The notes: generated by a model not told the origin, from the letters alone. Shown: positions 6,700-56,400, counted from the stretch's first letter. The stretch: DNA of 64,000 bases from a virus (IMGVR_UViG_3300035696_000002), one strand, 5' to 3'. Translations and numbers: made by a program.

Positions 6700-7089
6700 A
6701 TGCCGAAGTTCGTCATCGAAGCTGGGGCCATCGAGCTTGTCCGGGGCCGTCCCATCGAGGTCGAGATCGAAACGGGCGGTGCCATTACCGCACTGACGAA
6801 GCTGGGCCTCACTGTTTGGGAGCGGGACAAGTGGGATGCGACAGTAGCAAAGATCAAGGAAACTATGGATTTTGATTTCCCTGAGCCTATCGTAACGAAC
6901 CTCACGGTGCCCGGCTACATGCTGCTCTTGGATTTCTACAACGCCGTCGCCTACCTGACCCTCCACCACGACGTACTGGGCGGCGAAGTCGGCGACAAGG
7001 TACTCGGCGAGACGGCGGTGGTTTATCCATCAAAACTTGGCCCGCTGCTTGAGGCCGTGGACAAAGAATGGTGGAAGAGGAAGCCATGA
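6700..7089 (+). CDS. hypothetical protein
   Basis: Packed ORF. Confidence 0.6.
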   Translation: MPKFVIEAGAIELVRGRPIEVEIETGGAITALTKLGLTVWERDKWDATVAKIKETMDFDFPEPIVTNLTVPGYMLLLDFYNAVAYLTLHHDVLGGEVGDKVLGETAVVYPSKLGPLLEAVDKEWWKRKP

Positions 7090-7727
7090 TTAAACTACCC
7101 AGCGATGAATTCATTTTCAAGGTTCGGGCCATGACCGACGAAGAGTTGATCGCCGCCTACAAGGAAGCCCGCACTTGCATGGACAACCTTGAAGTGGAAC
7201 GGATGAACTGCTGGAACCGCATGATGGAGATTCACAAATTGCAGGACGACATCGGCGGCGAGATGCAGGCTTTGGCCGTCAATCTTCACTACGTCCGCAA
7301 GCTGAAGTTGGAACGATGAGAAACCTAATGAGCGAATTTGACAGGTTGAAAGCACAGAAAGAGCAGTTCGAGCAGCGGGAGGTTTGCCGGATCATCAATG
7401 TCCTCCGGCAGGCCTTCGTGAAGATCGCAAACGGGGCCGAGGCCATGAAGTTCGAGGACGCCGTCCACGCGGTCTACCCATTCGCCACAGACTGGATTCC
7501 GCCGAGTCAGGAACCGCCGACACAGGGATAACCATGGGACTACGACCAATGCCGATGATGCCGCTGCCCAACTCCCCGAAGGAGCACTGGGAAAAGTACT
7601 ACGCCGCTATGCGGCGGATGCAGTACGTCGCCGGGCTACAGATGCGAGTTCTCGCTATCGGGATCGGGCTCAGCATCGGCCTTGCAATCGCCCTGATCGC
7701 CATCGCAAAATAATTTTTCGCCAGTAG

Positions 7728-7756
7728 TTGACATTTTCCGAAATACCCAGTACTAT
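7728..7756 (+). promoter_or_regulatory. sigma70-type promoter of the tRNA operon
   Basis: TTGACA-17 nt-TACTAT. Confidence 0.85.
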
Positions 7757-7793
7757 ACAGAGAGTCAGCAAACTGCTGGCCCGAGACACTACC

Positions 7794-7892
7794 ATGACCT
7801 CAATGAAACATAATACGGTCGCACGAAAGCAGTGGCGGAATCGTCGCCACGACGGCGTTGGTCTGTCCTCGGACACGGAGTTTGGGAAGTAA
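7794..7892 (+). CDS. attenuator leader peptide MTSMKHNTVARKQWRNRRHDGVGLSSDTEFGK
   Basis: 32-codon ORF between promoter and terminator; core enriched in K/H/N/R/Q/W codons. Confidence 0.75.
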   Translation: MTSMKHNTVARKQWRNRRHDGVGLSSDTEFGK

Positions 7893-7933
7893 ACAAAGCA
7901 ACCAAACCCAAAACGAGAGCAAACAGACCCGCC
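7854..7933 (+). promoter_or_regulatory. putative antiterminator helix
   Basis: GGCG/CGCC, GGTCTGT/ACAGACC, CTCG/CGAG, TTTGGG/CCCAAA pairings; overlaps the terminator 5' arm. Confidence 0.7.
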
Positions 7934-7958
7934 AAAAACTGGCGGGTTTTGCATTTTT
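7927..7958 (+). terminator. intrinsic terminator (attenuator)
   Basis: ACCCGCCA-loop-TGGCGGGT followed by TTTGCATTTTT. Confidence 0.85.
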
Positions 7959-7971
7959 AGTGGGAAAATTC

Positions 7972-8045
7972 GGGGGTGTCGGTTAATGGCAAACCAGCGG
8001 TCTCCAAAACCGTGACTGGGGGTTCAAGTCCCTCCACCCCCGCCA
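7972..8045 (+). tRNA. tRNA-Trp(CCA)
   Basis: Cloverleaf, anticodon loop CTCCAAA, encoded CCA. Confidence 0.95.
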
Positions 8046-8064
8046 AAAGATTGAGGCGGAGATT

Positions 8065-8692
8065 ATGGAATTGAAGATTGAACAGCAGACGCGAGGCACC
8101 CGCATCCTGCGGGGGGAGTCAGCTACCCGGAGGCGACTTCATCTCATCTAGTCTCGCAACAGCAGCGACGGCAGCCGGGTACGAGGAAATCGTACTCCCG
8201 TCGCTAGAGCCAGCCGCTCTCTACGCTGAAAAGGCTGGCCCTGAGATTCTGGGACAGATGTACTGCTTCCCGGACAAGAAAGGCAGGCAGTTGTGCCTGC
8301 GACCGGAAGGAACGGCGACCTGTCAGATACTCGCCGACACGGTAATGAAAATGGAGCGAGACGTGAAGCTCTGGTATCTGACGACCTGTTGGCGTTACGA
8401 ACGACCACAGGCTGGGCGGTACCGGGAGTTCACACAGTTCGGGGTGGAAATCCTGAACCCACGCGGCCCCGTCCGGGATGAGTTAGTGGCTTTGGCCGAA
8501 AGCATGGTGCGGCAGTTCACGGATCAGTATGAAGTGAACGCGGCAGTCAAGCGGGGGCTGGCCTACTACGTCGAGGATGGCTTCGAAATCAGTTGCCCGG
8601 CACTGGGGGCTCAGAAGCAAGTCTGCGGCGGCGGTTCATACAAGCAAGGCTGCGGTTTCGCAATTGGGGTAGATCGCATGATGCTTGTGTGA
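8065..8692 (+). CDS. histidyl-tRNA synthetase-like catalytic domain (no anticodon-binding domain); +1 frame break near 8137-8147
   Basis: RGTR N-terminus, GYEEIVLP, LRPEGT, WRYERPQAGRYREFTQFGVE, GGGSY, GFAIGVDR. Confidence 0.85.
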
Positions 8693-8697
8693 CGTAT

Positions 8698-8774
8698 GGT
8701 GGGCGTAGCTTAATGGTTAAAGCATCTGGCTGTGAACCAGAAGGTTGCGGGTTCGATTCCCGTCGCCCACCCCA
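8698..8774 (+). tRNA. tRNA-His(GTG)
   Basis: Cloverleaf, G-1/C73, CCA. Confidence 0.95.
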
Positions 8775-8785
8775 AAATTTTATAT

Positions 8786-8863
8786 GGTGTCATTGGTGTA
8801 GGGGCTTATCACGGCGGACTGTGAATCCGCTATTCGTGGGTTCGAATCCCACATGACACCCCA
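8786..8863 (+). tRNA. tRNA-His(GTG), second divergent copy
   Basis: Cloverleaf, G-1/C73, CCA. Confidence 0.9.
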
Positions 8864-8879
8864 AGATTGGAAGTGCACC

Positions 8880-9032
8880 ATGTGGTACGACGACAACGTG
8901 TGCGAAGTTTGCGGGTTGGAAAAGCCGGACGTTCGTGAACGCGAGTGCGGTTACTCGATGGAACTGACTGGCGAAGTGCACTTGGAAGTTATTTGCGATG
9001 ACTGCGAACACCAGCATTGCATGGACGTGTAG
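8880..9032 (+). CDS. small Cys-rich protein (50 aa)
   Basis: CEVC..CDDC; stop codon lies inside the next tRNA. Confidence 0.5.
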   Translation: MWYDDNVCEVCGLEKPDVRERECGYSMELTGEVHLEVICDDCEHQHCMDV

Positions 9033-9099
9033 CTCAGTTGGATAGAGCGTTCCCCTCCGAAGGGAAAGGTCGCAGGTTCGACTCCTGCCATGTCCACCA
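9023..9099 (+). tRNA. tRNA-Arg(CCG)
   Basis: Cloverleaf, loop CTCCGAA, CCA. Confidence 0.95.
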
Positions 9100-9103
9100 G
9101 TTT

Positions 9104-9343
9104 ATGAGTAGAACATTTACAATTCACGATACGGAACTCGCTACGTTCGAGAAGTTCAAGGCAGAGCACGAACCAAAGTGCGTCTACCACGGCGACACGA
9201 TGGCGAATCCGGGGCACATTCGGTACTTCACGCCGACATCGGCGTACACGATTATGTTCAAGCCGACAGGCGTCGGTGACGGCGTGCATGTGAAGTGCCT
9301 TTGCGGTGAAGAGGTAGACATCACCGATTACGAATTGTGGTAG
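9104..9343 (+). CDS. hypothetical protein
   Basis: ORF between tRNAs; PTGVG..VKC.CGEE.DITDY..W. Confidence 0.65.
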   Translation: MSRTFTIHDTELATFEKFKAEHEPKCVYHGDTMANPGHIRYFTPTSAYTIMFKPTGVGDGVHVKCLCGEEVDITDYELW

Positions 9344-9347
9344 TTTT

Positions 9348-9424
9348 GCTCGTGTAGCTCAACAGGAGAGAGCGTACCCCTGCGAAGGGTAAGATTTGTG
9401 GTTCGAGTCCACTCACGAGTACCA
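9348..9424 (+). tRNA. tRNA-Arg(GCG)
   Basis: Cloverleaf, loop CTGCGAA, CCA. Confidence 0.9.
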
Positions 9425-9435
9425 TTTTAGATTTT

Positions 9436-9513
9436 GCCCGGTTACCCATTGGACATGGGGCCTCGTCTTCGAAACGAGGACGCTCAAGGGTTCGAATCCC
9501 TTACCGGGTTCCA
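9436..9513 (+). tRNA. tRNA-Arg(TCG)
   Basis: Cloverleaf, loop CTTCGAA, CCA. Confidence 0.9.
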
Positions 9514-9589
9514 GATTTTGGTCTGACACACGCTGGTGTCAGCGTAAGCGAGGGTCGCCGTAATCAGTCGCCCTTCGGCCATGAAGTTT

Positions 9590-9666
9590 GTTTCCGTAGC
9601 TCAACTGGATAGAGTACGTGGCTACGAACCACGGGGTTGGGGGTTCGAATCCCTCCGGGAACACCA
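9590..9666 (+). tRNA. tRNA-Arg(ACG)
   Basis: Cloverleaf, loop CTACGAA, CCA. Confidence 0.95.
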
Positions 9667-9679
9667 GATGTTGTAACAT

Positions 9680-9766
9680 TGGGATGTAGAGCGTAATTGG
9701 TAGCGTGCACGGCTGTTAACCGTGTGTCGAAAGACCTTGTAGGTTCGAGCCCTACCGTCCCAGCCA
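9680..9766 (+). tRNA. tRNA-Asn(GTT) with long variable arm
   Basis: Loop CTGTTAA; variable hairpin GTC-GAAA-GAC; CCA. Confidence 0.88.
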
Positions 9767-9783
9767 AATTCATAGGAGGCGTT

Positions 9784-10038
9784 ATAGGCAAACAGAAGGA
9801 AGTGAAATTCAGCGTCAGGGTCAGCGACCATGACTACGGTTACAGAGTCGAGCAGGTGAAGCGATTTCTGGCCAAGAAGCATAGTGTTTTGGCTGTGGTG
9901 CAGTTTAAGGGGCGTGAGATCACACATCCCGAACTTGGGCAAGAGTTGTTGGCCCGGCTGCTAACCGATCTGGGGAGAAACGGAACTCCCGTCCTGAAGG
10001 GACGATCACTTCAAGTTCTGATTACGCCTAAGAGTTGA
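9784..10038 (+). CDS. infC: translation initiation factor IF-3, C-terminal domain only (probable ATA start)
   Basis: KEVKF..DHD..RFL..FKGREITHPELG; AGGAGG SD upstream of ATA. Confidence 0.8.
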   Translation: MGKQKEVKFSVRVSDHDYGYRVEQVKRFLAKKHSVLAVVQFKGREITHPELGQELLARLLTDLGRNGTPVLKGRSLQVLITPKS

Positions 10039-10115
10039 GCGGTGCCGTAGAAGGCAACCCTGTTCAATAGGAGGGCAGAGACCAAAGCGGTACTGCTCAA
10101 AAAGTTTTGATGTAT

Positions 10116-10203
10116 TGGGAAGTAGGAAAATTGGCAACCCCAGAGGATTCTGAATCCTCCGTGCTTAAGCACACTGAAGGTTCGAATCCTTCCTTCCCAG
10201 CCA
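10116..10203 (+). tRNA. tRNA-Gln(CTG) with long variable arm
   Basis: Loop TTCTGAA; variable hairpin GTGC-TTAA-GCAC; CCA. Confidence 0.88.
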
Positions 10204-10216
10204 AGTTTAGGAGTCG

Positions 10217-10286
10217 TGGACTGTAGCTTAGTTGGCAGAGCACCCCCGGCAAGGGGGAGACGCGGGTTCGATTCCCGCCAGCCCGA
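10217..10286 (+). ncRNA. tRNA-like RNA with 5-nt anticodon loop, no CCA
   Basis: Canonical D and T arms; CCCCC-GGCAA-GGGGG arm. Confidence 0.65.
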
Positions 10287-10369
10287 ATACGAACGACTCT
10301 TAGTGCTGAGAGTGGACGAGGATTTGTCCTGATCGTATCGGGACGTAGAATTGTCCGCTCTCGTTGCAT

Positions 10370-10444
10370 TCCTCGGTAGCTCAGGGGTAGAGCAGGTGGC
10401 TGTTAACCACCCTGTCGGAGGTTCGAATCCTTCCCGAGGAGCCA
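10370..10444 (+). tRNA. tRNA-Asn(GTT)
   Basis: Cloverleaf, CCA. Confidence 0.95.
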
Positions 10445-10446
10445 AG

Positions 10447-10547
10447 TTAGGTTAGAAGGTCGCGGACACAGGAACCGCCTCTCGTGTACTGTACGCTTCG
10501 GCTATCGACAGAGGACGGGTGTAGCTCAGGGAGAGCATCTAACCTGA
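10447..10547 (+). ncRNA. circularly permuted tRNA-like RNA (YrlA Y-RNA-like topology)
   Basis: TAGGTTAGA/TCTAACCTG closing stem, then AGGTC, T-like arm, looped acceptor stem, TAGCTCAGGGAGAGCA D arm. Confidence 0.6.
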
Positions 10548-10560
10548 AAGTTTGAAGCTG

Positions 10561-10628
10561 GGGGGCGTAGCTCAATGGTAGAGCAGCCCACACAAGGGAA
10601 GATGCGGGTTCGAGTCCCGCCGCCCCCA
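10561..10628 (+). ncRNA. tRNA-like RNA with degenerate anticodon arm, no CCA
   Basis: Perfect acceptor, D and T arms; shortened anticodon arm. Confidence 0.65.
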
Positions 10629-10716
10629 TAAGGCTTCATTAAAGGGCCAGAGATAGACCGGGACGCCGGGAACGTCGTGAAATCCTCATAGGCCCCACGT
10701 GATTAGAAGTAAAGCT

Positions 10717-10793
10717 GGGTGTGTGGTGTCAACGGCTAACATATCTCCCTCTTAAGGAGCAAGATGCTGGTTCAAATCCAGTCACACCCACCA
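10717..10793 (+). tRNA. tRNA-Lys(CTT)
   Basis: Loop CTCTTAA, CCA. Confidence 0.9.
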
Positions 10794-10814
10794 AGTTTGT
10801 GTTAGAGTGAAGTC

Positions 10815-11627
10815 ATGTTGCATCACGTAATTCAGAAGGACATGTTTCACGAGTTCGGGTTTCATACTCTGATTCGTGCGATGGAAGAAAACGAAGTCCC
10901 GTATTGCGTGGTGAAGATCATCCCGTTCAGTCATGAACTGACGTGGGAGTCAGGTGTGCCGCTGCCGGAGAGCACGGTGCCGACAATGATCTGGGGCATG
11001 ACCTGTGTTGAGGAAGTCGCCGGAGTAAGACAATGGACGCCCGGCGTGTTCAAGAACGAGAATTTCGATTTGCGTGTGATCGGCGAGAGGTACGGCGAGA
11101 ACATGCTGAATGCCGACGCGAAGTTTTGCAGGCTGGGGGATATTCCAGCGTTTGAGGGATCGGCATTCATTCGCCCGGTACACGACACAAAGTCGTTTAC
11201 CGGAGCCCTTATCAATGGCGAAGACCTGCGAACTTGGCAGGATCAGCTAATGCAGTTGAAGGGTGAGTTCACGACGTTGAGTCTGGACACCCCGGTGCTG
11301 TACGCCAGCCCGAAGAAGATTGATACTGAGTGTCGCTTCTTTGTGGTGGATGGAAAAGTTATCACTGGTAGTTCGTATCGGGTTAACGGTAGAGTATTAT
11401 ACAAGAGGGTGAACGCCGACAACCCGATGTGCATCCCCCTGAGGGAGTTTGCACAGAGAATGGTTGACCAGTGGCAACCTGTTGAAGCATTCGTGATCGA
11501 CATCGGACGAGTCGGCCAAGAATGCAAAGTGATCGAGATCAACTGCTTGAATTCGTCGGGGTTTTACGACTCGGACATGGCGGCGGTGGTCAGGGCGATC
11601 ACGAATTTACCAAGTTTGGATCGGTAG
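10815..11627 (+). CDS. ATP-grasp domain protein (DUF4343-like)
   Basis: FIRP..DTKSFTG, ECRFFVVDGKVITGS.Y, FVIDI..KVIEIN..NSSGFY. Confidence 0.8.
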   Translation: MLHHVIQKDMFHEFGFHTLIRAMEENEVPYCVVKIIPFSHELTWESGVPLPESTVPTMIWGMTCVEEVAGVRQWTPGVFKNENFDLRVIGERYGENMLNADAKFCRLGDIPAFEGSAFIRPVHDTKSFTGALINGEDLRTWQDQLMQLKGEFTTLSLDTPVLYASPKKIDTECRFFVVDGKVITGSSYRVNGRVLYKRVNADNPMCIPLREFAQRMVDQWQPVEAFVIDIGRVGQECKVIEINCLNSSGFYDSDMAAVVRAITNLPSLDR

Positions 11628-11693
11628 CTCAATTGGCAGAGCAGGTGACTCTTAATCATCAGGTTGGGGGTTCGATTCCCTCCCGGTTCACCA
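11618..11693 (+). tRNA. tRNA-Lys(CTT)
   Basis: Cloverleaf, CCA. Confidence 0.95.
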
Positions 11694-11696
11694 ATT

Positions 11697-11765
11697 TTAC
11701 GGGTCGCTTAGAAGACGGAAGCAGGCGGCGGTACCGCCGTTGCGGGTTCAATGTCCGCCCCGTGA
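11697..11765 (+). ncRNA. tRNA-like RNA with 5-nt anticodon loop, no CCA
   Basis: GCTT/AAGC D stem, GGCGG-CGGTA-CCGCC arm, GCGGG-TTCAATG-TCCGC T arm. Confidence 0.55.
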
Positions 11766-12486
11766 ATTCGGGTCGAAGGCTAAATGCCTGATTGTTCCCG
11801 TGGACACCCAAACGAAAGAGGCGTGACCAAGCCGGAGAGTCGGCACCAGTTTTATGCGAAAGACGTGTCCCAGTTGTCTCGGTGATGACGCAGCAGAGCG
11901 AGAAGGCCGGAATTTCGACCCTCTCTATGGCACCGTAGAGATTTACTGCACGTACTGTGGCTCGTTTGTGGACATGATCTGGCGATGGCAGACAGACGAT
12001 TCGGTCTGGCAAAAGTTTAAGGAACAAGCGAGGGGATATGTGGGGTGCTCCTGAGGACGTGCCGGGTCGTTGTAACGCCCGGCTTTTTGTTGGGGACGAT
12101 TATGGCGACAACACCGCGACGTTCATGTGCGAGTTAGACCCCGGCCACGAAGGTAAGCACCGGGAAGTCTTCCGCGATGGCACAGCGGTCATAGAGTGGG
12201 AGACCGATGAGAGGCAGACCGGGAACGATCCTGACCTGTAAGGATTTTGCGGATTTGGGCATCGAATGTTGCGAGGCCTGCCACGACGTAGAGAATCTTG
12301 ACCCGCTTTTACGGATCAGGGTCGATGGGCAGGAAGCCCTAGTTTGTTGTGAAATAATGGCATTTTTCTACCCTGACGAAGCAGATCAGGCGGATTTTTG
12401 GCAAGCTCAAATGGACGAGGCCGAGGCGTTAAACCCACCAAAGCCAGAGGACTTTGAAAACCCTGAATAGAAGGGGAATTGATTTT

Positions 12487-13035
12487 ATGGCTGACACTCT
12501 AGTACTTGACATGTCGGGAACCCCAATCGGGTTCGTTTCTTGGCAGCGGGCTGTGAAGCTCTACTGGGAAGACCGTGCCGTCATCGTGGATGATGACGCA
12601 AACCGGATTCTCCACTCGCCGTCCTTCGAAATGAACATGCCGACCGTCATCCGTGCTAAGAACTGGGTGCAGCGTCGGAAGAAGGAACGTGTCCCGTTCT
12701 CGCGTCGCAACATCGCGATCCGCGACAACAGCCGTTGCCAGTACTGCAATAAGCTGTTGCAGACGGCCCAGTACACGATGGATCACGTCATCCCTCGTTG
12801 CAAGGGCGGAACGTCTACGTGGACGAACCTCGTGCTTGCTTGCATCCGTTGCAACAAGTACAAGTCTGGTTGCACGCCGGAGGAGGCAGGTATGCATCTG
12901 TTGAAGCAGCCTATCGAGCCGAAGGCAGATGACCCGAAGTACAACTTCAAGCTTCGGATCAAGAAGATGCACCCGACGTGGAAGCCGTGGGTCGATGGCG
13001 GCTGGCTGTACTGGAACATCGAACTGGACAAGTAG
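12487..13035 (+). CDS. HNH endonuclease (McrA/HNH_5-like)
   Basis: FSRRNI..RD..CQYC..TMDHVIPR..GG...WTNLV.AC..CN..K. Confidence 0.9.
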   Translation: MADTLVLDMSGTPIGFVSWQRAVKLYWEDRAVIVDDDANRILHSPSFEMNMPTVIRAKNWVQRRKKERVPFSRRNIAIRDNSRCQYCNKLLQTAQYTMDHVIPRCKGGTSTWTNLVLACIRCNKYKSGCTPEEAGMHLLKQPIEPKADDPKYNFKLRIKKMHPTWKPWVDGGWLYWNIELDK

Positions 13036-13456
13036 GAGAAGTCATGAGCCTAGTGCTAAGCGGCGATTTTTGCGGCTGTGAGAAGCATCATGGCTCATGG
13101 CACTCCAACTGCCCCGAGTGTGACACGGAAGAGGGCAAGTCCTGCTGGAAGTTTTTGCACGTGCAACTACCGTGCGGTAAGTGCGATAATTGCATTCGCA
13201 ACGGGAACAAGCCGTATGATTGGCGTAAGGAAATGCTGGGCGGGGAGTTTACCGAAAGTTTCATCGCTTGAAGGAGCCTTATGGACGTTGACAGTATTCG
13301 CAAGTTGGGCATTAGCAGCAGCCTCGGAGACAAGGAAACAGTAGCTCTCTTCGAGAAGTTGATCGCATACGGCTGGATTGACGGGGCCGGGCGGTCGTTA
13401 CCGTGGACGGCTCATCTTCGCCGCAAGGATCGTGCAGCGGCAGCGGGGCGTGAGTA

Positions 13457-13714
13457 ATGCCGTACAACTACCCCGGCTTACTTCGCAGCGAAGACACCAA
13501 CGACCACGATTGGCGGATTGTGTGTGATGTGCTGGATGCAGCCATCGCTCACTGGAAAAAGCGGAGCGAAACCGAGAGTGATTTGTTCGGTTCGGCCTAC
13601 GGTCATCACTACGTAGGGGCTCTCACAGAAGTTCAGATCGCGTTACTCGGCGGCGAAAGCGACAACGTCGATGAGAAGGCGATTGAGGCCATGATTAAGG
13701 CCGCAAAAGTTTGA
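13457..13714 (+). CDS. hypothetical protein
   Basis: TAATG-coupled ORF. Confidence 0.55.
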   Translation: MPYNYPGLLRSEDTNDHDWRIVCDVLDAAIAHWKKRSETESDLFGSAYGHHYVGALTEVQIALLGGESDNVDEKAIEAMIKAAKV

Positions 13715-13800
13715 TCCCGTAGTCTAGTTGGACAAGGCAGCGGTTTCCTAAACCGCAGAGCGAAAGCTCATCGGGGGTTCGAATCCCTCCGGGATCACCA
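13713..13800 (+). tRNA. tRNA-Arg(CCT) with long variable arm
   Basis: Loop TTCCTAA; variable hairpin GAGC-GAAA-GCTC; CCA. Confidence 0.9.
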
Positions 13801-13821
13801 TTTTGATTGCAGGAGCACGCG

Positions 13822-14094
13822 ATGTTTAAGACGATGCAGTTGGTTTATCGGAACATGGTTTGGAACCGCCCGAAGATCGGGCTGTGGGGTTTGATCGTAG
13901 TCGCGTTAGTGGCCACGACAGACCTGTACTTCAGCATTTTGCGGATCGGTGGGGGCCGGGTAACTGCTGGCGTATTCGCCGCCTTCGCACTGAGCTTCTG
14001 GTTCGTCGGGTTGCCAATGGTTCTGACACTGATCGACCTGAAGATGAAGCCCCAGAGGATGGAAAAAATCTGGGCACAGATGCACAAGCAGTAA
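13822..14094 (+). CDS. small membrane protein
   Basis: AGGAG SD; two hydrophobic helices. Confidence 0.6.
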   Translation: MFKTMQLVYRNMVWNRPKIGLWGLIVVALVATTDLYFSILRIGGGRVTAGVFAAFALSFWFVGLPMVLTLIDLKMKPQRMEKIWAQMHKQ

Positions 14095-14100
14095 ACGTTT

Positions 14101-14174
14101 TGCCCCTTCGTTCAACGGCAGGACACTTGGCTCTGAACCAAGGTATGGTGGTTCGAATCCATCAGGGGCAGCCA
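14101..14174 (+). tRNA. tRNA-Gln(CTG)
   Basis: Cloverleaf, CCA. Confidence 0.95.
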
Positions 14175-14661
14175 AGTTTTGGGCTTCAGAATCCATTTGT
14201 ATATGGAACTGAAACCGTATAAGATCGTTGCAATGCCGTTCGCACAATCTGACGCGACCGCCGAATACACGGAGTATGCGATCAGCGAAGATCAGGCCTT
14301 GCGAAATTTTGAACGACGTTACCCGGCGTACCGGGTTAAAGAAGTAAGGGAAGCGTGAGCAAGTACGACGGAACAATTTGCAACGACTGTAACACCGAGA
14401 TTTATCAGGACAAGTGCAACTGTGATTATTACCGGGCACACCCTGAGGCAACCTTACCCGAGAATGAAACATCTAGGGAGATAGGTCGCAGGATTCGAGA
14501 AGACTTTGGCGATGAGATCGCCGGAGCATTGAAATAGATTATGACCATGCTAAACTACATGCCGCTGATTGCCGCAACCGAGATCATGGTTCTCGTTGTG
14601 CCCCGCCTCGTCTTCGCGATTGCCGCGACTCCTCTCAGACGAAAACGCTAACCCAATCCTT

Positions 14662-14743
14662 GGGGGCGTAGACTCGTGGTCTTCTAAACCATAAGAGCTT
14701 AACCGGACTGAAAATGTGGGTTCGAATCCCACCGCTCCCTCCA
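14662..14743 (+). tRNA. non-canonical tRNA-Arg(TCT) lacking the D arm
   Basis: Acceptor, anticodon and T arms plus CCA intact; 7 nt in place of the D arm; 23-nt variable region. Confidence 0.7.
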
Positions 14744-14760
14744 TACCTTTGCGTACCTTT

Positions 14761-14835
14761 GCCTCCGTAGCTTAACGGTAAAGCTACCGCCTTTTAAGCG
14801 GATAGATGGGGGTTCGATTCCCTCCGGGGGTACCA
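14761..14835 (+). tRNA. tRNA-Lys(TTT)
   Basis: Cloverleaf, CCA. Confidence 0.92.
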
Positions 14836-14837
14836 AT

Positions 14838-14917
14838 GGGGGTGTAACTCAATCGGGTCAAGAGTACCCGGCTTTTAACCGGGAAGTTGCAGGCAACCCA
14901 ATCTGCCGCCCCCACCA
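14838..14917 (+). tRNA. tRNA-Lys(TTT) with aberrant T loop
   Basis: Loop CTTTTAA, T loop CAACCCAA, CCA. Confidence 0.8.
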
Positions 14918-15133
14918 TTCCTTCCTATGCTATAATCACCACGTGAAATACAAAGACTTTTTCATCGACGAGGGCAAATACTTCATCGACGCCGAGAAGG
15001 TGACTCGCGAAGTGTTCAACGAACGCCGATTGAAAGAGTGCTGGCACCACTGGGTGCCGATAGGTGATTCCGACAAAGACGGCGAATGTCGTTACTGTGA
15101 ACTCAAAGTTGTCGGGGGCAAAAAAGTAGTCGA

Positions 15134-15655
15134 ATGATTACCTGCGTGACAGCACCGAGTCGAAGCGGCACCAGCTTGACCATGCAAATGCTACAGGCAG
15201 CGGATGTGCCGCTGTGGTGGGACGCTCTCCCTAATCGCACAGCGTGGAATCCACGCGGACACTTCGAGATCAACACGCGAAAGAACAACGACTGGACGAT
15301 CCTTCTGCCGCTCTGTGAAGGCAGGGCCATCAAGGTGATGCCGTTTGATCTGTACCGCCTGACGCCGGATCACGAATACCGTTTCATCACAATCCTCCGC
15401 AATCCAACAGCCGTCGATGCGTCGCAGCAAGCTGCGGTGGAATTTCGTGGTGCAAAGATGTCTGACGCGGATAAGACCAAGGAATGGCAGCGGTATACGC
15501 TGGACTTTATCAAGGACTACCCACACGTCATCGTCAATTTCGACGACCTGTTCAACGGCAAGGCCCAGCAGAGCATCGGCGAGTTCATGGGCTTCGACGA
15601 CCTCCAAATCGCGAAGATGAACGATTGCGTAGACCCGGAACTCAGGCATTTCTAA
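15134..15655 (+). CDS. sulfotransferase-family P-loop protein
   Basis: PSRSGTSLTMQML, NPRGHFE, AIKV, ILRNP..V.AS. Confidence 0.75.
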   Translation: MITCVTAPSRSGTSLTMQMLQAADVPLWWDALPNRTAWNPRGHFEINTRKNNDWTILLPLCEGRAIKVMPFDLYRLTPDHEYRFITILRNPTAVDASQQAAVEFRGAKMSDADKTKEWQRYTLDFIKDYPHVIVNFDDLFNGKAQQSIGEFMGFDDLQIAKMNDCVDPELRHF

Positions 15656-47419: not shown

Positions 47420-50400
47420 CTACTGATATCTCTCTTCTGCCTCTACCAAAGAATACGTTTCGTACCCGTGGGCGGGAGAGTGCCACTCAACATCTACTCG
47501 TGCGGTATCCACAGCGAGGAGACGGACAAAAGCACCAAGCCTACGTTGAGCATCGGCCTGAGAGAAGAATTCAAAGATAGCAACTTTACCGCCAGTTGTC
47601 ACCTTCAACCCCGCCGATTCTGCGTTATAGCGAACGTAACCAGCCCGCATCGCGAACAACTCCGCACCTTCGTAGCCGCCCAGACCTTTGGACTGCCCAC
47701 CGCCGCGAAACTTTCCTTTGCTCTTGAAACCGAGAGCACGGGCTATTTCAGCGTGCGTCCCATTCACTGGAATATTTTTCCCGTCTGGTGTGATCCAGCC
47801 CCGACCGTGGAGCGGGTAAGACAACGCTGTTGGGGTTATCGGCTGGGTCGCCGTTCCCGCCGCAGCCGCCGTAATACCGGGGTTCTTCGGATCGAACGCA
47901 CCCGTATTGCCCGTCGCAGACTTGATCTGGGTCGGTTCGAACACAACGTAGTTGAGTGAGGCATCCAATCCGCCGCGTCCGTACATTTTTTCGGCACGGG
48001 CCGCGTAGTCTTCATCGCTCTGACCAACAAATTGAAGCTCGCCGCCCTCGACGGTGATGTAGCCATCGTAGCCAGCAGACTTAATGTCGTTCACGAGGTT
48101 GATGCCAAGCTGTTCATCGGTGGACACAGACTCCATGCCCTCTACGAACGCCCATTTGCCTTCGCGGAACAGTTTGTAGATGTGCTTTGGATCATACCCC
48201 TGTAGTTTCGCCGTATGCTTGCGGAGCCATTCACGCACCCAGCGACGCGAGGCTGGATCACGGAAATCAAGCGGGTTTTCCATCTTCAGGTAAACCGCTT
48301 TGACGTTGCCGCCTTCGCGATCCTTCCCGCCCGGATCGTAACTGTAGGTGAACTGCTCCGTGTACATCGGATTCGAGGCGAAAAAGAATCCGGGCCGGAG
48401 TGTAAGCTCCGTAGTCTTCGGACGATCAGCTTCAACCTTGTCCTTGGCCTGTTGGAGGGTGCCGAACTCGCCGCCGTCCGGGAAGAGCTTGAACTTTCCT
48501 TCCTGTTCGACGATTACGGCCTGCGTGCGGCCCTCACCCTGACCCACGGCACCCTTGCCGCCATCAAAGTCGCTCCACTTCCAGTACAGCGGACGTTCCA
48601 AGCTGAATGCATCGAAGTCTCGCGGCGATCCATGGTAAACCACCTGCGGATTGCCGTTCGCATCCACAACTTTGGAATTACCGAACCACGCTTTGAACTG
48701 CGGAGTGTCCGTCACCCTTTGTGGAGCCCGAGCCGGACTGGCTGCCGTGTGCACATCCTCTTCAGTCGAGGAGATCAGCTTCACGACCTTTGCTTTGCGT
48801 GCCCGATACTCGAACAACGTGTGCTCGCCGCCCTTGGCCTTACCGCTCCAGTAACCCTGAGCAAGGCGGGCAGCCTCCGGGTCATCTATGCTGTCCCAGA
48901 TGTACGTTGACAACTCGGAGTACCAATCCATGTCGTTCTTCTCGACCTTGCCGATAGGTTCGACGGCGTAGACGTAGTCTTCGTAGCCGCCCGCATAGTC
49001 GATCAGAGCCGGATCATCCACCATATAGACGCTATCCTTGCGAGGCAGGGCACCTTTCGGGCGATGCAGTTCTACGATGTCTTCAGTCAACTCGACATCG
49101 GGTTCTGGGGCGGTCACATACCCGCCCGGCTGGGGCGTAAGGGTGTCGCCCGGCTGGAATTTCTTCCGGCTGCCGTGGTACAGAACCGTCTTCGCTGTCT
49201 TTACCGATCCGTAGTGTGGGTCGTACTCTTTATCAACCTCATCCCTCGTCAGAACCGCACCAAAGTAAGCATCCCGCTTCACGGTAGTCTCGATGAGCGT
49301 CCCCTTCGGGGTGACGAGCCATGAGTGTGGACGCCAGAGTCCATCCGGGGACAGAGCGAATCCGTTCGCAACTTCTCCAATGCCCTTCTCCATGAGGCAG
49401 CGACTATTTCCGTGGCACTGGTTGTTCCGCATCTTCTGGAGCTTCGATCTTCCCTTCCAGTACCGACCGCGAGTGAGCAACCGCTGCACTTCGTCAGGTG
49501 GGTTGATCTGACCTCCGATCAAAACTTCGAAGCCGCCATAACCGAGTATCTTGTCCCGCAACTTGACCAAGTCGGGACGAGTCCGCAACTCAGGCTCGTT
49601 CATCTCCTCAAGCCGCTGCTGCCATTCCTTATCCACTGCAAGATCGGCAGCAGACTTGGGATTGGGGTCTACCGACGCATACTTGCTGTTCACATTGAAG
49701 ATTTTGTCGGTGAACTGGTAGCTCTTCAGCTTCGGGTATTTCGCCTTGATGCTCGTGACGATGGAGTTCGGTGCGTGCACGCCGTAGGACTGCATTTCAA
49801 CGGTGTTTTCATCTGGGTCGATGACAGCATACCCACGAAGAAGCTTGCTATCGTTCGGAATTCCCAACTCTTCTGCCCAACTGTCGTGGCTCCACGCGAT
49901 TTCCTGATCTTCGATGTAATCTTTGCCGCCACGGGACATCCAAATCAGGTAATTGCTCGCCGGAACGCGGGCAGCCGTTTTCTCCTGATCTTTTCCAAGG
50001 GCCTTGCGGATAATGTTCCCGGAGTTCTGGAACAGTTTCAGGAGGCCGGGGTGGTACTTGCTGGAATTCGTCCCGATGTCCTCCATGACAGTCTCGTAAG
50101 GCACCCAGTTCAAAGACGCGGTCTCGTCCTTGTGCTCCAGATCGTGTGTGCCGCCCGGCTGCGGGTTAAGGCCGAACTCCTGCGACACCACGCCGATGAA
50201 GTTGTGATAGTTGAACCCACCGAAGCCGGAATAGGTGAAGGCCGGGATCAAATTGATGCCGCCAGTGTACCCGGTCTCCTCGGCAAGTTCCTTCTTGGCA
50301 CTCTCAGCCGGGCCAAGGCCTTCTTGCAGGGCACCGCCGATTGTGCTGTACACGTTCGGGTGATCGACGTAGTTGGAACGCATGGCAAGGCAGATGGTGC

Positions 50401-53400
50401 CCTTTGCGGGGCACACAGGGAGGATACCGGACGCCTGCCCGGACTTACCGCCCCAGAATCCCTGCTTAGCCAGCCGCCCAGCCGGGAAACGCTCCTCAGC
50501 GTCAGCCAAGGAGTACTCGATAAAGTTGCCACGGCCCTCTTCGACGCCAACACGGGCGATATCTACCGGGAAGCGGCGGAGGATTTCGCCTGCACGGCGA
50601 TAAGCGTCTGCCTTGTCGGCAAACTGCATGAAACCGATGCTCTTGTTCGGGTCGATGACGACGCGGACGTATCCCTTGTCGATGGCCTGCTTGGTGAGAT
50701 CGTGTCCACGGAAGCCAAACTGCATTGCCATGGTTTCGTGGTCAGTATCGGAGCAATCCACCCAGTTTCCGGTTGGAGTCACCCAGCCATCGTCGCGAAT
50801 CTCCATGGGCATAGGGACGCCACGCATTTTCGGGCGGGCGAGGCGAACGCCGGGCTTCCCGCAATTCAGAGCGATTGCGGCAACCTTTGATCCCTGTGGA
50901 TCACGCACCATAAGCGTGCCCCGGACGGTTTTGAATCCACGACGGCTGTACCACGACGTAAGCTGCTCATCGTCGAGGCCCTGACCATCACCAAACGCAT
51001 CCGGCGTCAAACTCATCTTCACGCCATGCTTGTCAGCCAACGAGCACAGCCAATCCAATGCCCGTGAAGCGTTGCCTTTGCCCCGGAACAGGGAGGTGAT
51101 GTCGCTGATGTGAATCTTGCCGTCGAACGGACGGACTTCGATCACGACTTGTTCATTCCATACACGGTCGCGGTGCCCAAGTGGGTTAGGCCCAGTGCCG
51201 GAACGGAAATCATTCATGAATTCTTCGAGGGCCGGGTTCTTTGACTTCAGAGAAATCTCTGCGGAGGTTTTCCACGACCGGGATTCAAGCGGACGTTGAG
51301 CAACGACTTCTTTCTCCGGGTATAGCTGCTGGAACTCGTCAATAACCTCGTAAGGAACGCCGCCGTAATCGGAACTCTCCCGCAAGAAAATCTGAGTGGA
51401 GGCCTTACGGGCATCACCACGGGGAATGCGGTCAAATGAGTGCCCGGAGGTGGGCAGGCCCATGGCTTTGAACCATTCCAAGTGTCCCTTCTCCGATGGC
51501 ACGCCACGGAGCACTTCAACCTGACCATTTACGATGGCCCACAGGTCGAATGTCTGCCGTCCATGAAGGGCTGTCTTCACGCCATACTCTTTGAATGACG
51601 CCGGAGTCCAGAAGACCTTGTAGTGGTCTCCGTACAAGCCTGTGGCATCGCACTTTGTCTTGCCGGGCTCTTCCACACGTAAAGCCACGGCCTCAGCGAC
51701 CGGGTATCTGTCGAAGGTGAAAACTACCTGCTCCCCGTGGAGGCAAAGCGGGCGATCCTTGAACGCCCAGAACTCTTCCTTGCCGCCAGAGTCCTCAAAG
51801 AAGTGATCGCGGGCGAAGGAGGGGACTTCAATCGTGAAGGCCTTCTTGCCCGCCACAAATTCTCCGGTGTCTTTCTTGACCTGCCGGGCCTTGTCATCCC
51901 ACATCTCAATCAGGCCGGGGTCTTTGATGTTCGTCGCTTCGAGCGGCGTGCCAATATGCTTCTCCGTCCATTCACGAAGCAGCTTGTGGAGTGCCTGCTT
52001 GTTTTCGAGATCGGCCAGCCGGGCCGTGAAGACTTTTACAAGTTTGCCTTCCTTCAAGGCCTGCTTGACTTTCTCAACCATCGCCGGAATGGGCTTTCCG
52101 ATCACCAGAGGCGTGAACGGCACAACATCTTCAGCGAGCGTGCCGTCGAGATCGACACCGATCCATGGACGCCATCTTCCAGCTACCAGATCATCCTCTT
52201 CAGCAGAGAATTTCAGGGGGACATCATGCCCGTTGTACCGGAGCTTCGGTGCCACAATCGGCTCCCCGACCTGTTTGATCTGGCTCGACTTGAACACGAT
52301 GTAATCGTCGCCCGCTTTTAATGCGTGCGGTTCGATTACGTTTTTGATGATGACCCCGTCATACCCATTTTTGTGTGCGAATTCCGCAATGAGGTCTGAA
52401 CTGACGCCCCGCTTCTTCCACCAGTCACCACCGAGGAAGCCTTGCTGCATCTCTGGAGGTGCAGGAATGTTGTCGTAGAAGTTCCCTTCTGCGTCCACGA
52501 TGTACGGCTTGTTAATCGTCAGATATGCTTGGTGAACCTGCGGGCCATAAGCTCTGGCAACCTCTGGTGACGAGGTGAAGAACTCCCCGACCGTGTACTG
52601 ATCGTTCTTGATCTTGCGATTCAGCTTTTGCCCGACCGGGATTCCCCGATAAACGGGGCCATACTGCTGGGCGACCTTAGCGGCTGCGGCTTTCCCACTC
52701 ACAACACGGAAATACGTCGGCGGCAGAGGACGAGTCAAACAGACGTTCCCCGGCAGATCATTGATGTGGGCCAATTCTGTAAGGACATCGTCGGCGACGC
52801 CGTCCTCGGGGTCAACGATCAGGTTGTCGAGCGGGACATCGCGGACTTCTACGACCGTCTCGCATCCCTTTTCGCCTGCATACCAGAGAGCGTTCTGGAT
52901 TTCGTTCGTCAGGTAGAGATATTTTGTCTGCCCGGCATTACCACCCATGCCTGCCTTGTTGGGCTGCCAGCCGTGCTCGATCAGTTCCTTGGCGTTCTCT
53001 GGGCAAGTGCCGTGATAGAGCGGCGGAGCCAGTTCTGCGGCAGTTTTCGATGCACCCTCAGAGAACCACGGCATGTCAATCGTGTCGCCTGCTGTGACGG
53101 TACGGAGATTCTTCGGCGGCTTCTTCCATTCCTTTTCACCCTTGTACTTGTAGCCCGTGATCTGAATCTCTGCTCCCGGAACAACGTTAATTTCCTTCTC
53201 ATCAGCGGCCACAAGGTTCACGTATGCCGTCCGATTCCAGTCAACTTTGTTGGGCGAGTCGAGGATGCCCCGAAGCATGATGATGTGTGGGTGCCCAGCG
53301 GCAAGTTCTTCGTGCACGTAAGCATTGTTCTCGTCGTCAGACCAGAAAATGCCCGTGCCCTTCTCCTTGTACCGCCCCTTGTTAATCTCGTTGAGGCTGA

Positions 53401-56400
53401 CGGTGCCCAGTCCACGGTAAATCGTCAGCGGAAACTGGAGTGAATGGAGGCGATTCTCCGTAATCTCCCACGAAGCCCGGAGCCATTCCCAACCCACCTT
53501 GTCCAGCCACGCTTCACGTTGAGCCTCGGACAAAGTGTTCCAATCGTTGCCCTCGGCCTTCACTCGCTGGCGTGCCTCAGCCTCAATCTTATCCCAATCA
53601 CCCTGTGCCTCTTCGAGGCCAACATTGGCCCATGCCAGAGCGTCTTCCAGATCGGGCATACCCGATGCACTCTTGCTGGTCTTGAGTTCTTCGTACAATT
53701 CGTCGGTGTTTGTGTCATCGACTACTTGTTTGTTAGGCCTCTTTACGGGAACATACGCCTGAATGGTCTCGTCCCCACGCAGCTTCGCCGCCGCTGCACG
53801 GTGGTTTCCATCCAGTACAGTGCCACTGAATATAGAGCCGTTCGGATAGGAATTCATCACAATCGCCGGGAAGGGGGTGTCCATGTCCGCATATTGTTGA
53901 GCAACGGCGGGGCTGTAGTCATCGCCCGGTGTCAGAAGATCGACAGGTACATCTTTCAATTCCCACCGTGTGCTGGCACCCGTCTTAGGGTCTACGCCCA
54001 TCAGTTGATATGCCTCACGGAGGTCGGTCATGAATGGGCGTGAGTCACCGTAACGAGTGCTGTTGTCCAATATGTGCTGTGCGACGACTTCTCCGCTTAC
54101 TGCTTGCCCAGCGGTGACACTCGCCATGCGGAAATCGCCGGGTTGCTTTGCCTTATCCCCAGTCGCCAGTTCATAGAACTTGATGAGGTCTTCATCCGAG
54201 GTGATGTACTGCGACAGCGTGTTGTGAATACGGTGGTCTAACGCCTTGGCCTGCCCGATTGGCATGACCCGGAGAACTTTCGCCTTCTTGGGGTCTTCCA
54301 CCCAGAACTCGTTCCCGAATCCACGCTTTACCTGCCAGTATTTGTCACGGGGCACGTCGCTCATGTCGATCTGAGCCGCATACGCACGAGACTTGCCGTA
54401 ATAGTCCGCCCAGTTGTCGAGGTGGGACGTAATCATGAGTTTCCCGGCGTCCGCTGTGGCATCGCCCATGCTGGACATGTCACGCGGCCCCTTCTTCGGG
54501 TCAATCGTGAAGTTTGGGTCGGTCGTTACGTGCCAATACGTGCCATGCTTGATCTCGTGGAAGAAATCCTGATAGAACTGCTCAAACGAACCCGCTTTGC
54601 GTGCCTCGGCAGCGAGGCCGGACAGCGACGGCGGAATTTTCTTCAGTTCTTTGTAACCCCCGGTCTTCGAGGACAACTTTTCGGGCTCATCTTCGACATC
54701 GTAGCCTGATGGATCACGATCTGATGTGATCGAAGGTGGAGTCTTGCCGCCGTTGACGCCCTTCCACATGTAGTTGTCAGTTTCGTCGCCCTGTTCGGTA
54801 TCGTAGACGTAGCTGAAACCCATGGAATCCCAGAATCCTCTGGAACTACCCGCCCCGGTATCGCCTGCGTACAGCCGCACGAGTTTTATGTTCTTGGGGA
54901 GCCCGGCTTCCCATTGCATGTAGAACTTTCTGCCCAGACCCTTGCCGCGATCCTTCGCCGGGATCACAAACATGTCGATCCAGATCGTGCTTCCGTCCCC
55001 ATGGGTCTCAATGCTGGGCTTATCCTTTGCCCCGGTTTTGTCGAGCCACTGGAGAGCCTGTGACGGCGTCGGTTCTTCTTTACCCGCGATGTCTTCCAGT
55101 CTATCGAGGGCCATCTGAGCCATTTCCTGATCGAATGGGTTGGACGGCAGCGGCTTGTCGAATTCTGGCTGAGCGGAATCGCTGTGCTGCGGAATCATGT
55201 ACGACTGATCGGGGCCTGCGGTCTTCGTGGAGCCTGATTTTCCAGTCCCGGACAGTTGGCTGAGCGTATTGCTGCCGCCTTCGATGAACCAGCTTGCCAA
55301 ATCACTCCGCTGATGCACAATGTTGAGCACGCGGTCGATCAGTTGCAGCTTTTGCTCCGCCGTGGGGGCCTCGGAAAGCTGAATCGCGAGATTGGTGAGC
55401 TTGTTCATGGCGAAATCGCTGATCCGCCAGTTGCCCTTCTCGTCATCAAAGAAATGTTCGAGCTTTTCGAAGTAGCCGTCAGGGTATTGGTCACCTGTGA
55501 TGCCTTCGGCATACTGGATCGGGTCTTGTTGCTCATGTCCACAGAGAATCGTGTTGACTTCCAGCTTGTTGATGTTGTTTGCAATGATCCAAGCGATGTC
55601 GTCGATGCCCTTTTCGTCACGGACGAAGCCTGTCTTCGCGTAATCGTTCCAAATTTTCTTCAGACGGGCAGCGGGAACGAGCGTCCACTTCTGACGGTAA
55701 TTTTTCTGCTTCAAATGAGCAGTGTACTCTTCGATAATTTGCTGGGCGGCGGCATCCTGTCCTTCGATGTGTGAATACACGTCCGCTTCCTTCTCGAAGA
55801 GTCCCGGTGCGAGCGTTTCCAGAGCAGGCATGCCCTCGACACCCTTGACTCGTTCGTTGACAACCGAGTAGGCGTTGGTTTCTTCTCCCTGTGCGGGGTC
55901 TTGGTACTGGGTGTCGCTGAGCGGAGGCGTCTTATGCGAGGCCGTCTTGCCCGGCGTGAACTCTCCGGCGATTTCCTGCCATTTGTCGTGACCCTCAGCG
56001 AGTAATTTCTTCAAATCTTCAAGCAGATTTTCGCATTTCGAGAACTTCCACTGCCCCAAAGCGACGGCGGCGTCGCGTGCGATCCGCTGGGCGTTGTTGT
56101 AGACAGTCAACTGAGCGTGGGCGTCGGCGTATGCCTGACATTTTACCTTCAAACGGGCAACCGCGTCCTCAAAACTGAGGGAGATCGTGCCTTCTTCCTT
56201 GTGCACGTTGTAATTGTTTCGCTGATTGCCTTCCATTTCGCGGACGAAACCATACGGGTTCTGGAGAACACGCAAAACCTTCTCTACTTTGTCCTTGACG
56301 TTGCCCCACTGGCCCCGGAAACCGCTGAAATTTTCTGACATGCGGTGCGTCAGGTCTCCGGTGTGCTCAACAACGAAACTAAGGACGCCGGACGCAAGCT

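Follow-up and report, generated by a model that had tools for sequence, protein, structure and literature searches.

Introduction

The leader attenuators of enterobacteria (thrL, ilvL, hisL and trpL) combine a promoter, a short open reading frame (ORF) with regulatory codons, an intrinsic terminator and an antiterminator that uses the 5′ arm of the terminator, and several amino acids can be sampled by one leader. Here, we describe the same combination, with translation of the leader inferred, ahead of a tRNA array at positions 7972-14917 of a 64,000-nucleotide stretch of viral DNA (IMGVR_UViG_3300035696_000002; this whole stretch is called the window), which spans bases 79749-143748 of one IMG/VR virus record (463,033 bp, rated complete). 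In contrast to the enterobacterial systems, the controlled genes are tRNAs, a miniature histidyl-tRNA synthetase (mini-HisRS) and a protein made of the C-terminal domain of initiation factor 3 (IF3-C) instead of biosynthetic enzymes, so that the output would restore the supply of tRNA and not that of amino acids. The leader also differs from thrL, ilvL, hisL and trpL in sampling up to 11 different codons once or twice each, rather than repeating one codon, and in being predicted to read through when untranslated. No Rfam leader family matched it. T-box riboswitches likewise sense tRNA supply and decide between a terminator and an antiterminator over translation-related genes, but they bind uncharged tRNA directly, without translation of a leader, and no T-box match was obtained at this locus.

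According to the accessible portion of the report by Al-Shayeb et al. (2020, PMC7162821), huge phages carry up to 67 tRNAs, synthetases, initiation factor 3 (IF3) and transfer-messenger RNA (tmRNA). The present genome resembles theirs in exceeding 200 kb (463,033 bp) and in encoding dozens of tRNAs (68, plus a tmRNA), a synthetase-like gene (the mini-HisRS) and an IF3 domain (IF3_C), whereas amino-acid-specific tRNA arrays, or leaders ahead of them, are not described in that portion. Dense arrays of many tRNAs on mobile DNA are also known from the tRNA array units of mycobacteria and mycobacteriophages (PMC5966550), but neither sorting by amino acid nor codon-matched leaders are mentioned for them in the accessible text. 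Phage copies of tRNAs depleted by host defenses, a possible reason for slow decoding, have been reported as well (PMC10264068; a T5 tRNA against PARIS, PMC11464382; PMC11555353). As far as the accessible text of these papers goes, they concern single tRNAs or unsorted arrays without reported feedback, whereas the anticodon loops of the array described here are canonical. According to the part of PMC10264068 available to us, the reason for phages to have tRNAs has long been an open question, and our literature search turned up no report of tRNA genes controlled by leader peptides or of attenuated tRNA arrays.

In this work, we conclude that the array in the window, which we call array B, is likely to be one of six tRNA operons under leader-peptide attenuation in a 463-kb megaphage with a near-complete tRNA set, and that the tRNA set of this operon is probably a regulon that senses slow decoding.

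Results

The leader region of array B

All features of the operon given here lie on the + strand. A sigma70-like promoter at 7728-7756, with 10/12 consensus matches and a 17-nt spacer, is the best one in 7000-15600. About 30 nt downstream, a leader ORF of 32 codons plus stop begins with ATG and occupies 7794-7892, with a control run at 7806-7850. Residues 5-19 of the leader, KHNTVARKQWRNRRH, comprise 12/15 residues with nitrogen in the side chain (K, H, N, R, Q and W, referred to as the N-class), and all six types are represented. The codons used in the run are AAA, AAG, CAT, CAC, AAT (twice), CAG and TGG, together with CGA, CGG, CGT and CGC once each. Leader and array match at the level of codons, as the leader contains CAG but no CAA and the array encodes Gln CTG only, with no Gln-TTG; each CGN codon appears once, and four NCG anticodons are present in the array; no Cys codon is found in the leader. 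When all 7,775 short ORFs of the genome were compared in six frames, this leader, found at two nested starts, was the sole one with at least 12/15 N-class residues and all six types.

An intrinsic terminator at 7925-7959 separates the leader from the array and ends 12 nt upstream of tRNA-Trp; its 10-bp stem (7925-7949) has 6 G-C pairs and is followed by a T tract. Region 2, at 7854-7866, is the strand predicted to form the antiterminator, by pairing over 11 bp with 7921-7934, and the structure reaches -30.6 kcal/mol (z -4.1) when the 3′ arm of the terminator is left out. In predicted folds of transcripts cut just before this arm, the antiterminator forms in the absence of a ribosome and also when the early control codons are masked by one; a mask on the last control codons weakens it, and a ribosome over region 2 abolishes it. 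Inside the array, no strong internal promoter and no + strand terminator were predicted.

The tRNA genes of array B

We detected tRNAs with ARAGORN and Rfam (RF00005), and the bit scores given are those of Rfam. ARAGORN called 17 tRNA genes (7972-14835, all on the + strand) and Rfam 18, with a union of 19 tRNA-like genes. Fifteen agree with the original prediction, a model's reading of the sequence that preceded this work: Trp CCA, His GTG (two), Arg CCG, GCG, TCG, ACG and CCT, Asn GTT (two), Gln CTG (two), Lys CTT (two) and Lys TTT. Each of these 15 has a canonical 7-base anticodon loop of the form Y-T-NNN-A-A and an encoded CCA. Arg-TCT and a second Lys-TTT were recovered by Rfam and not by ARAGORN.

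The array opens with tRNA-Trp CCA (7972-8045, 60.3 bits), and two tRNA-His GTG genes follow at 8699-8774 (76.4 bits) and, as a divergent second copy also found by both programs, at 8787-8863. In both His genes, the G-1 read from the sequence (at 8698 and 8786) is encoded and faces C73. Next are the Arg genes CCG (9023-9099, 70.7 bits), GCG (9348-9424, 60.7 bits), TCG (9436-9513, 38.1 bits to RF00005, with a canonical loop and CCA) and ACG (9590-9666, 62 bits). Downstream of them lie Asn GTT with a long variable arm (9680-9766, 87 nt, 35.4 bits), Gln CTG with a long variable arm (10116-10203, 88 nt, 46.7 bits), the other Asn GTT (10370-10444, 65.4 bits) and two copies of Lys CTT (10717-10793 and 11618-11693, each found by ARAGORN and Rfam). 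The distal part contains Arg CCT, again with a long variable arm (13713-13800, 88 nt, 57.2 bits), the second copy of Gln CTG (14101-14174, ARAGORN and Rfam) and Lys TTT (14761-14835, 65.3 bits). Duplicate genes have identical, canonical anticodon loops and highly divergent gene bodies.

Long variable arms in bacteria are usual only for Ser, Leu and Tyr tRNAs. The counterparts of the three long-arm genes of array B (87-88 nt) are of ordinary length in L057, a related contig described below, and further long tRNAs of this genome are Thr-TGT and two for Pro, located elsewhere.

The array is pure for the N-class (17/17, compared with 21/65 genome-wide), with P = 3e-12 and, at the level of amino-acid families, a chance of 1/38,760, both of which have to be read with the caveat that the class was picked after the data were seen. 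The claim that the array holds tRNAs for W, H, R, N, Q and K only, with all six Arg anticodons, stands for the decoding tRNAs, with Arg-TCT being non-canonical, but it had left out two tRNA-like genes with defective anticodons and no CCA. The set is not confined to the array either, as three Gln tRNAs and one Lys-TTT tRNA sit in another array of the genome, which places Gln-TTG and one Lys-TTT outside array B.

Related arrays and covariation with their leaders

L057 is a 69-kb viral contig that was reached via the HNH gene of the array (80% protein identity). It has the same array order and the same six amino acids only (Trp, two His, Arg ACG, CCG and ACG, Gln, two Asn, two Lys CTT, protein genes, Arg CCT, Gln, the odd Arg-TCT and two Lys TTT), while its tRNAs are merely 65-85% identical to those of the window, with 85% for the Asn GTT gene at 10370-10444 and its counterpart Asn2. 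Upstream of the L057 array there is a similar promoter at the same place, a leader with many R, K, N, H, Q and W codons, AGG and AGA among them, an equivalent terminator and a predicted antiterminator of -34.5 kcal/mol (z -5.6). Arg GCG, Arg TCG, the mini-HisRS and the two defective tRNA-like genes are absent from L057. The suggestion that the array is a regulon is supported by what lies ahead of it, namely a promoter, a leader ORF enriched in precisely these six amino acids, and a terminator with an antiterminator; L057 shares the layout.

The whole genome encodes 68 tRNAs according to ARAGORN (70 Rfam matches) plus a tmRNA, arranged in six arrays. Array A has four Ser tRNAs and Leu-TAA; array B is the one in the window (7972-14917); array C contains Lys-TTT, three CTA suppressors, Ile, Thr and Gln; array D has every GNN decoder plus Cys; array E has Tyr and Leu; and array F has Pro, Met and Phe. 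A check proposed along with the original prediction, to look for other amino-acid classes in separate arrays with leaders of their own, was thus answered positively by whole-genome tRNA calls, as arrays A, D, E and F have the same layout of leader and terminator. Their leaders spell Ser+Leu, GNN+Cys, Tyr/Leu and Pro/Met/Phe, respectively, and include even the odd members, such as Leu TTA with Ser in array A and Cys with GNN in array D. The three CTA (amber-reading) tRNAs and the tmRNA lie beyond the window, at G000:C1 238747-239065 and 242851-243196.

In a 332-kb contig (G006), arrays matching C, D, E and F follow one another as in this genome, and the contig probably stops short of A and B. 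More distant megaphages (516-578 kb, with 59-71 Rfam tRNA matches) group their tRNAs otherwise: Trp, Lys and Arg stand alongside Leu in G003 and G004, and His is found alongside Ser/Tyr/Cys in G003 and G004, Gln/Pro/Leu in G002 and Asn/Thr/Ile/Lys in G001. The leaders of G001, G003 and G004 follow their arrays, with Leu/Arg/Lys/Trp, Ser/His/Tyr/Cys and Thr/Ile/His/Lys/Asn/Cys leaders. The amino acids that share an operon therefore vary between lineages. We scored every upstream region against every array (28 arrays from 7 phage records), and the mean score for a region's own array was 3.69, compared with 1.27 for the others; 0/20,000 permutations reached the observed value (p<5e-5).

Organization of the tRNA set in the genome

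Neighboring tRNAs are for the same amino acid in 26/60 pairs, compared with 2.5 expected. The tRNAs of the genome are at most 83% identical to one another, and the Arg isoacceptors of array B are not mutual best matches, so recent duplication fails to explain the sorting, and an origin of the array by tandem duplication was rejected. The tRNAs are old and divergent. Sorting by synthetase class gave no signal. Neighboring tRNAs for different amino acids share anticodon position 36 more often than expected in this genome (0.50 vs 0.23, p=0.0006). As a general rule, sorting by position 36 was rejected, since it is present here, in G006 and in G002 (p=0.0006, 0.007 and 0.014) and absent or weak in three other genomes, which leaves a tendency only.

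All eight four-codon boxes are served by tRNAs with G34, U34 and C34 genome-wide. Arg GCG and TCG thus follow a pattern that holds across the genome, with ACG as an addition. The proposal that GCG and TCG free the phage from TadA editing was only partly apt: the two genes belong to the general G34, U34 and C34 set, ACG is kept too, the phage has no TadA (the only match was a dCMP-deaminase-like ORF), and L057 lacks Arg GCG and TCG.

Structurally unusual tRNA-like genes

The tRNA-Arg TCT gene at 14662-14743 (Rfam, 37.5 bits) is non-canonical and lacks a normal D arm; across the 5 records that retain it, the anticodon loop is invariant, 9/21 pairs are compensated and a 15-nt linker is invariant. 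Its anticodon arm is lengthened by a 4-bp helix that precedes this linker. Homologues are present in L057 (12287-12367), L066, L072 and L062. A DNA pattern built from this gene returned L057 again in the viral collection, and three short related fragments as well as unrelated arrays in metagenomes. In the fragment L062, a Val-TAC tRNA is located beside Lys and Arg genes. The second Lys-TTT gene (14838-14917; Rfam match at 14840-14911, 32.4 bits) has a normal anticodon arm and CCA when read from the sequence, but its T loop deviates from the T-T-C-purine-A motif, unlike its L057 counterpart, which is canonical.

Two further genes do not look like decoding tRNAs, because their anticodon loops are defective and CCA is absent, unlike the canonical genes of the array. 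The gene at 10217-10286 (48.5 bits) was called Cys GCA by ARAGORN; it has G at position 33 and a loop able to close to 5 nt, and the Cys assignment does not look credible for a decoder. No homologue of it was found in L057. The gene at 10561-10628 (ARAGORN, 57.2 bits) has a 6-nt loop. Together with three genes elsewhere in the genome (G000:C1 239197-239272, 239593-239667 and 347159-347231), they make up a set with good acceptor, D and T arms and an anticodon loop that is replaced or shortened: a 7-bp stem with a GAAA tetraloop is found in the gene at 239197, a CTCG loop in that at 239593, and 5- or 6-nt loops in the others. Array C of G006 has a gene with the anticodon called as '???' at the equivalent place. 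The loop-defective genes may be non-decoding tRNA mimics rather than pseudogenes. Partial tRNA-like fragments, with a D arm or a T arm only, are found at 10500-10560 and 11694-11790 amid the intact genes, with no match in related loci.

Protein genes of the operon

The mini-HisRS gene (8078-8692) encodes a synthetase core of ~204 amino acids (PF13393, 7.8e-21; hisS, 2e-43) and lies directly upstream of the two tRNA-His genes. The protein aligns to residues 25-147 and 249-288 only of E. coli HisRS, and is thus without the insertion and anticodon-binding domains, and in our own reading of the alignment and the ORF translation it retains motifs 1, 2 and 3. Similarly small HisRS homologues were found in 22 phage contigs, often within ~1 kb of tRNA-His. 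A possible earlier ATG lies at 8065 in another frame, and there is a G run near 8101-8107. The N-terminal HisRS motif is seemingly split over two frames around this G run, which makes the start of the gene uncertain or else points to a frameshift or a sequencing error.

A stand-alone IF3 C-terminal domain protein is encoded at 9802-10038 (PF00707, 2.4e-19; infC), with a probable GTG start at 9802 as judged by reading the sequence. An R2K-clade ATP-grasp protein (10815-11627; PF14243, 4.9e-18) is encoded between the two Lys-CTT tRNAs. In a pattern search, it was found neither in L057 nor elsewhere in the viral collection, and its use as an anchor for relatives yielded nothing. The L057 ORF that was aligned to it is a different protein. 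Seven small ORFs at 11854-13714 include an HNH endonuclease (12487-13035; PF14279, 2.1e-14), which is 80% identical to an L057 homologue at the same place. Several small ORFs in the operon are zinc-ribbon-like, as judged by Cys patterns and one weak Pfam match.

A small hydrophobic ORF at 14542-14652 ends in Arg-Arg-Lys-Arg (AGA CGA AAA CGC) just upstream of Arg-TCT and Lys-TTT, with no terminator after it; the ending may be fortuitous or may act as a second, minimal sensor. Past the array, the ORF at 15134-15655 was used as an anchor and gave relatives with no tRNAs near them. An open reading frame of 3,341 codons occupies 47420-57445 on the - strand.

Discussion

From the tRNA genes, the composition and uniqueness of the leader, the two predicted RNA structures, the recurrence of these in L057 and the leader-array covariation, all obtained with tools or by direct reading, we infer translation of the leader, kinetic coupling, a single long transcript and the cause of slow decoding. 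Transcription would start at the 7728-7756 promoter, and the 32-codon leader would be translated through a control run in which nearly all anticodons of the proximal array are represented by one codon. When the ribosome passes fast, it would cover region 2 (7854-7866) before the polymerase completes the terminator, the antiterminator would be barred, and transcription would stop at 7925-7959. Slow decoding of any sampled codon would instead leave region 2 to pair with 7921-7934, and the polymerase would read through into tRNA-Trp, the mini-HisRS, the His, Arg, Asn, Gln and Lys tRNAs, the IF3-C protein and the remainder of the operon. The likely causes of slow decoding are shortages of usable tRNA through a mismatch of codons and supply, host shut-off or tRNA-cleaving defenses, and the phage would replenish this tRNA set on demand.

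The locus has the parts expected of an attenuator: a cluster of regulatory codons, of which 12/15 match downstream anticodons; an intrinsic terminator between the leader and the first gene; an exclusive antiterminator that depends on ribosome position in the in silico folds of the window and of L057; and an architecture that is conserved in L057 and co-varies across the 28 arrays. The regulated genes are tRNAs and small proteins and not amino-acid biosynthesis or synthetase genes, and because of this we have not placed the leader in a described family.

Several observations weigh against an attenuated operon. The sigma70 consensus may not suit the host, and the Shine-Dalgarno sequence ahead of the leader ATG is weak. 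Three control-run codons, for Thr, Val and Ala, have no tRNA in the array, while the AGR tRNAs and several protein genes of the window are unsampled by the leader, and this particular leader was seen in two sequences only. An untranslated leader also forms the antiterminator in the folds, unlike trp-type superattenuation, and the stop codon lies 25 nt past region 2, so that a ribosome parked there would block pairing by bulk alone. Equilibrium folds of the full leader, with or without ribosome masks, always favored the terminator and were abandoned as a way of showing the switch, with truncated transcripts used instead; the switch must therefore act kinetically, as in classical attenuators. 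Promoter and terminator calls in the region were no more numerous than in shuffles. This last point, the weak Shine-Dalgarno sequence and the wholly in silico nature of the support for regulation would suit an explanation in which there is no regulation at all, with the short ORF and the hairpin being incidental (for example, the terminator of the upstream gene), the array constitutive and the sorting a trace of past duplication. However, the leader is unique in the genome and matches the array codon by codon, the L057 leader is alike in kind despite sequence change, leaders co-vary with arrays (p<5e-5), and there is no sign of recent tRNA duplication, the Arg isoacceptors not being mutual best matches. 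We consider this explanation extremely improbable.

A second question is why these six amino acids are found together. The original prediction proposed a nitrogen regulon, in which the six amino acids with side-chain nitrogen are grouped so that the phage senses and answers host nitrogen limitation. The exact six-residue set is found in both array and leader and recurs in L057, the family-level chance is 1/38,760 (for a class chosen after the fact), N-class tRNAs are adjacent far above chance within this genome, and a shortage of nitrogen-rich amino acids would raise stalling at these codons. Nitrogen limitation as the signal was nevertheless not supported by other results. Sets unrelated to this one are preceded by the same device in arrays A, D, E and F of this genome. 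In four distant megaphages, N-class tRNAs do not co-occur above random sets of six (Jaccard 0.228 vs 0.199, p=0.28), and 0/16 arrays of these four lineages are N-pure. Trp, Lys and Arg are placed with Leu, and His with Ser/Tyr/Cys or Thr/Ile, under matching leaders. Gln-TTG and one Lys-TTT are outside the array, and no sigma54-type promoter, the sole nitrogen-type site searched for, was found upstream on the + strand, where matches were at chance. The output of the operon is tRNA, and therefore it can relieve a shortage of tRNA and not one of amino acids. The phage's own usage of N-class residues is ordinary (22-23%). In addition, the six residues are neighbors in the codon table, filling the adjacent boxes [C/A][A/G]N plus UGG, and adjacent tRNAs tend to share position 36. 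Taken together, a nitrogen regulon is very improbable, and the shared side-chain nitrogen most likely came about incidentally, as a by-product of a lineage-specific grouping of codon-table neighbors. It is also quite improbable that the grouping is adaptive in the sense that tRNA supply is split into demand-sensing regulons according to which aminoacyl-tRNAs fail together, the operon being a ribosome-based gauge of host nitrogen or nitrogen-rich amino-acid status that also switches on the mini-HisRS and IF3-C.

Alternatively, the set could consist of tRNAs whose host versions are cut jointly by anticodon nucleases, with the divergent duplicates acting as resistant replacements, which is compatible with the attenuator as the sensor. 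Nucleases are known to target the tRNAs for Lys, Arg, His, Asn and Gln. The array has highly divergent duplicates, and a sensor of decoding speed would detect such an attack. In line with this, phage tRNAs rescue infection from tRNA-targeting defenses, according to the accessible parts of PMC10264068, PMC11464382 and PMC11555353. On the other hand, the anticodon loops of the duplicates are identical and canonical, in contrast to the loop-mutation pattern described in the accessible part of PMC10264068, and similar arrays cover all 20 amino acids, with nothing specific to the known targets, so we regard counter-defense as an unlikely basis for the set.

In the attenuated operon that we favor, the real regularity is a co-regulated set whose leader matches it, whereas the chemical label, attractive as it is, finds no support in the relatives. 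A leader that samples the codons of its own downstream tRNAs implies that the phage gauges decoding speed and makes tRNAs on demand. If this is true, codon compensation and defense evasion, as reasons for carrying tRNAs, become directly testable with a reporter, and leader-peptide attenuation, the textbook control of amino-acid operons, would be extended to tRNA genes.

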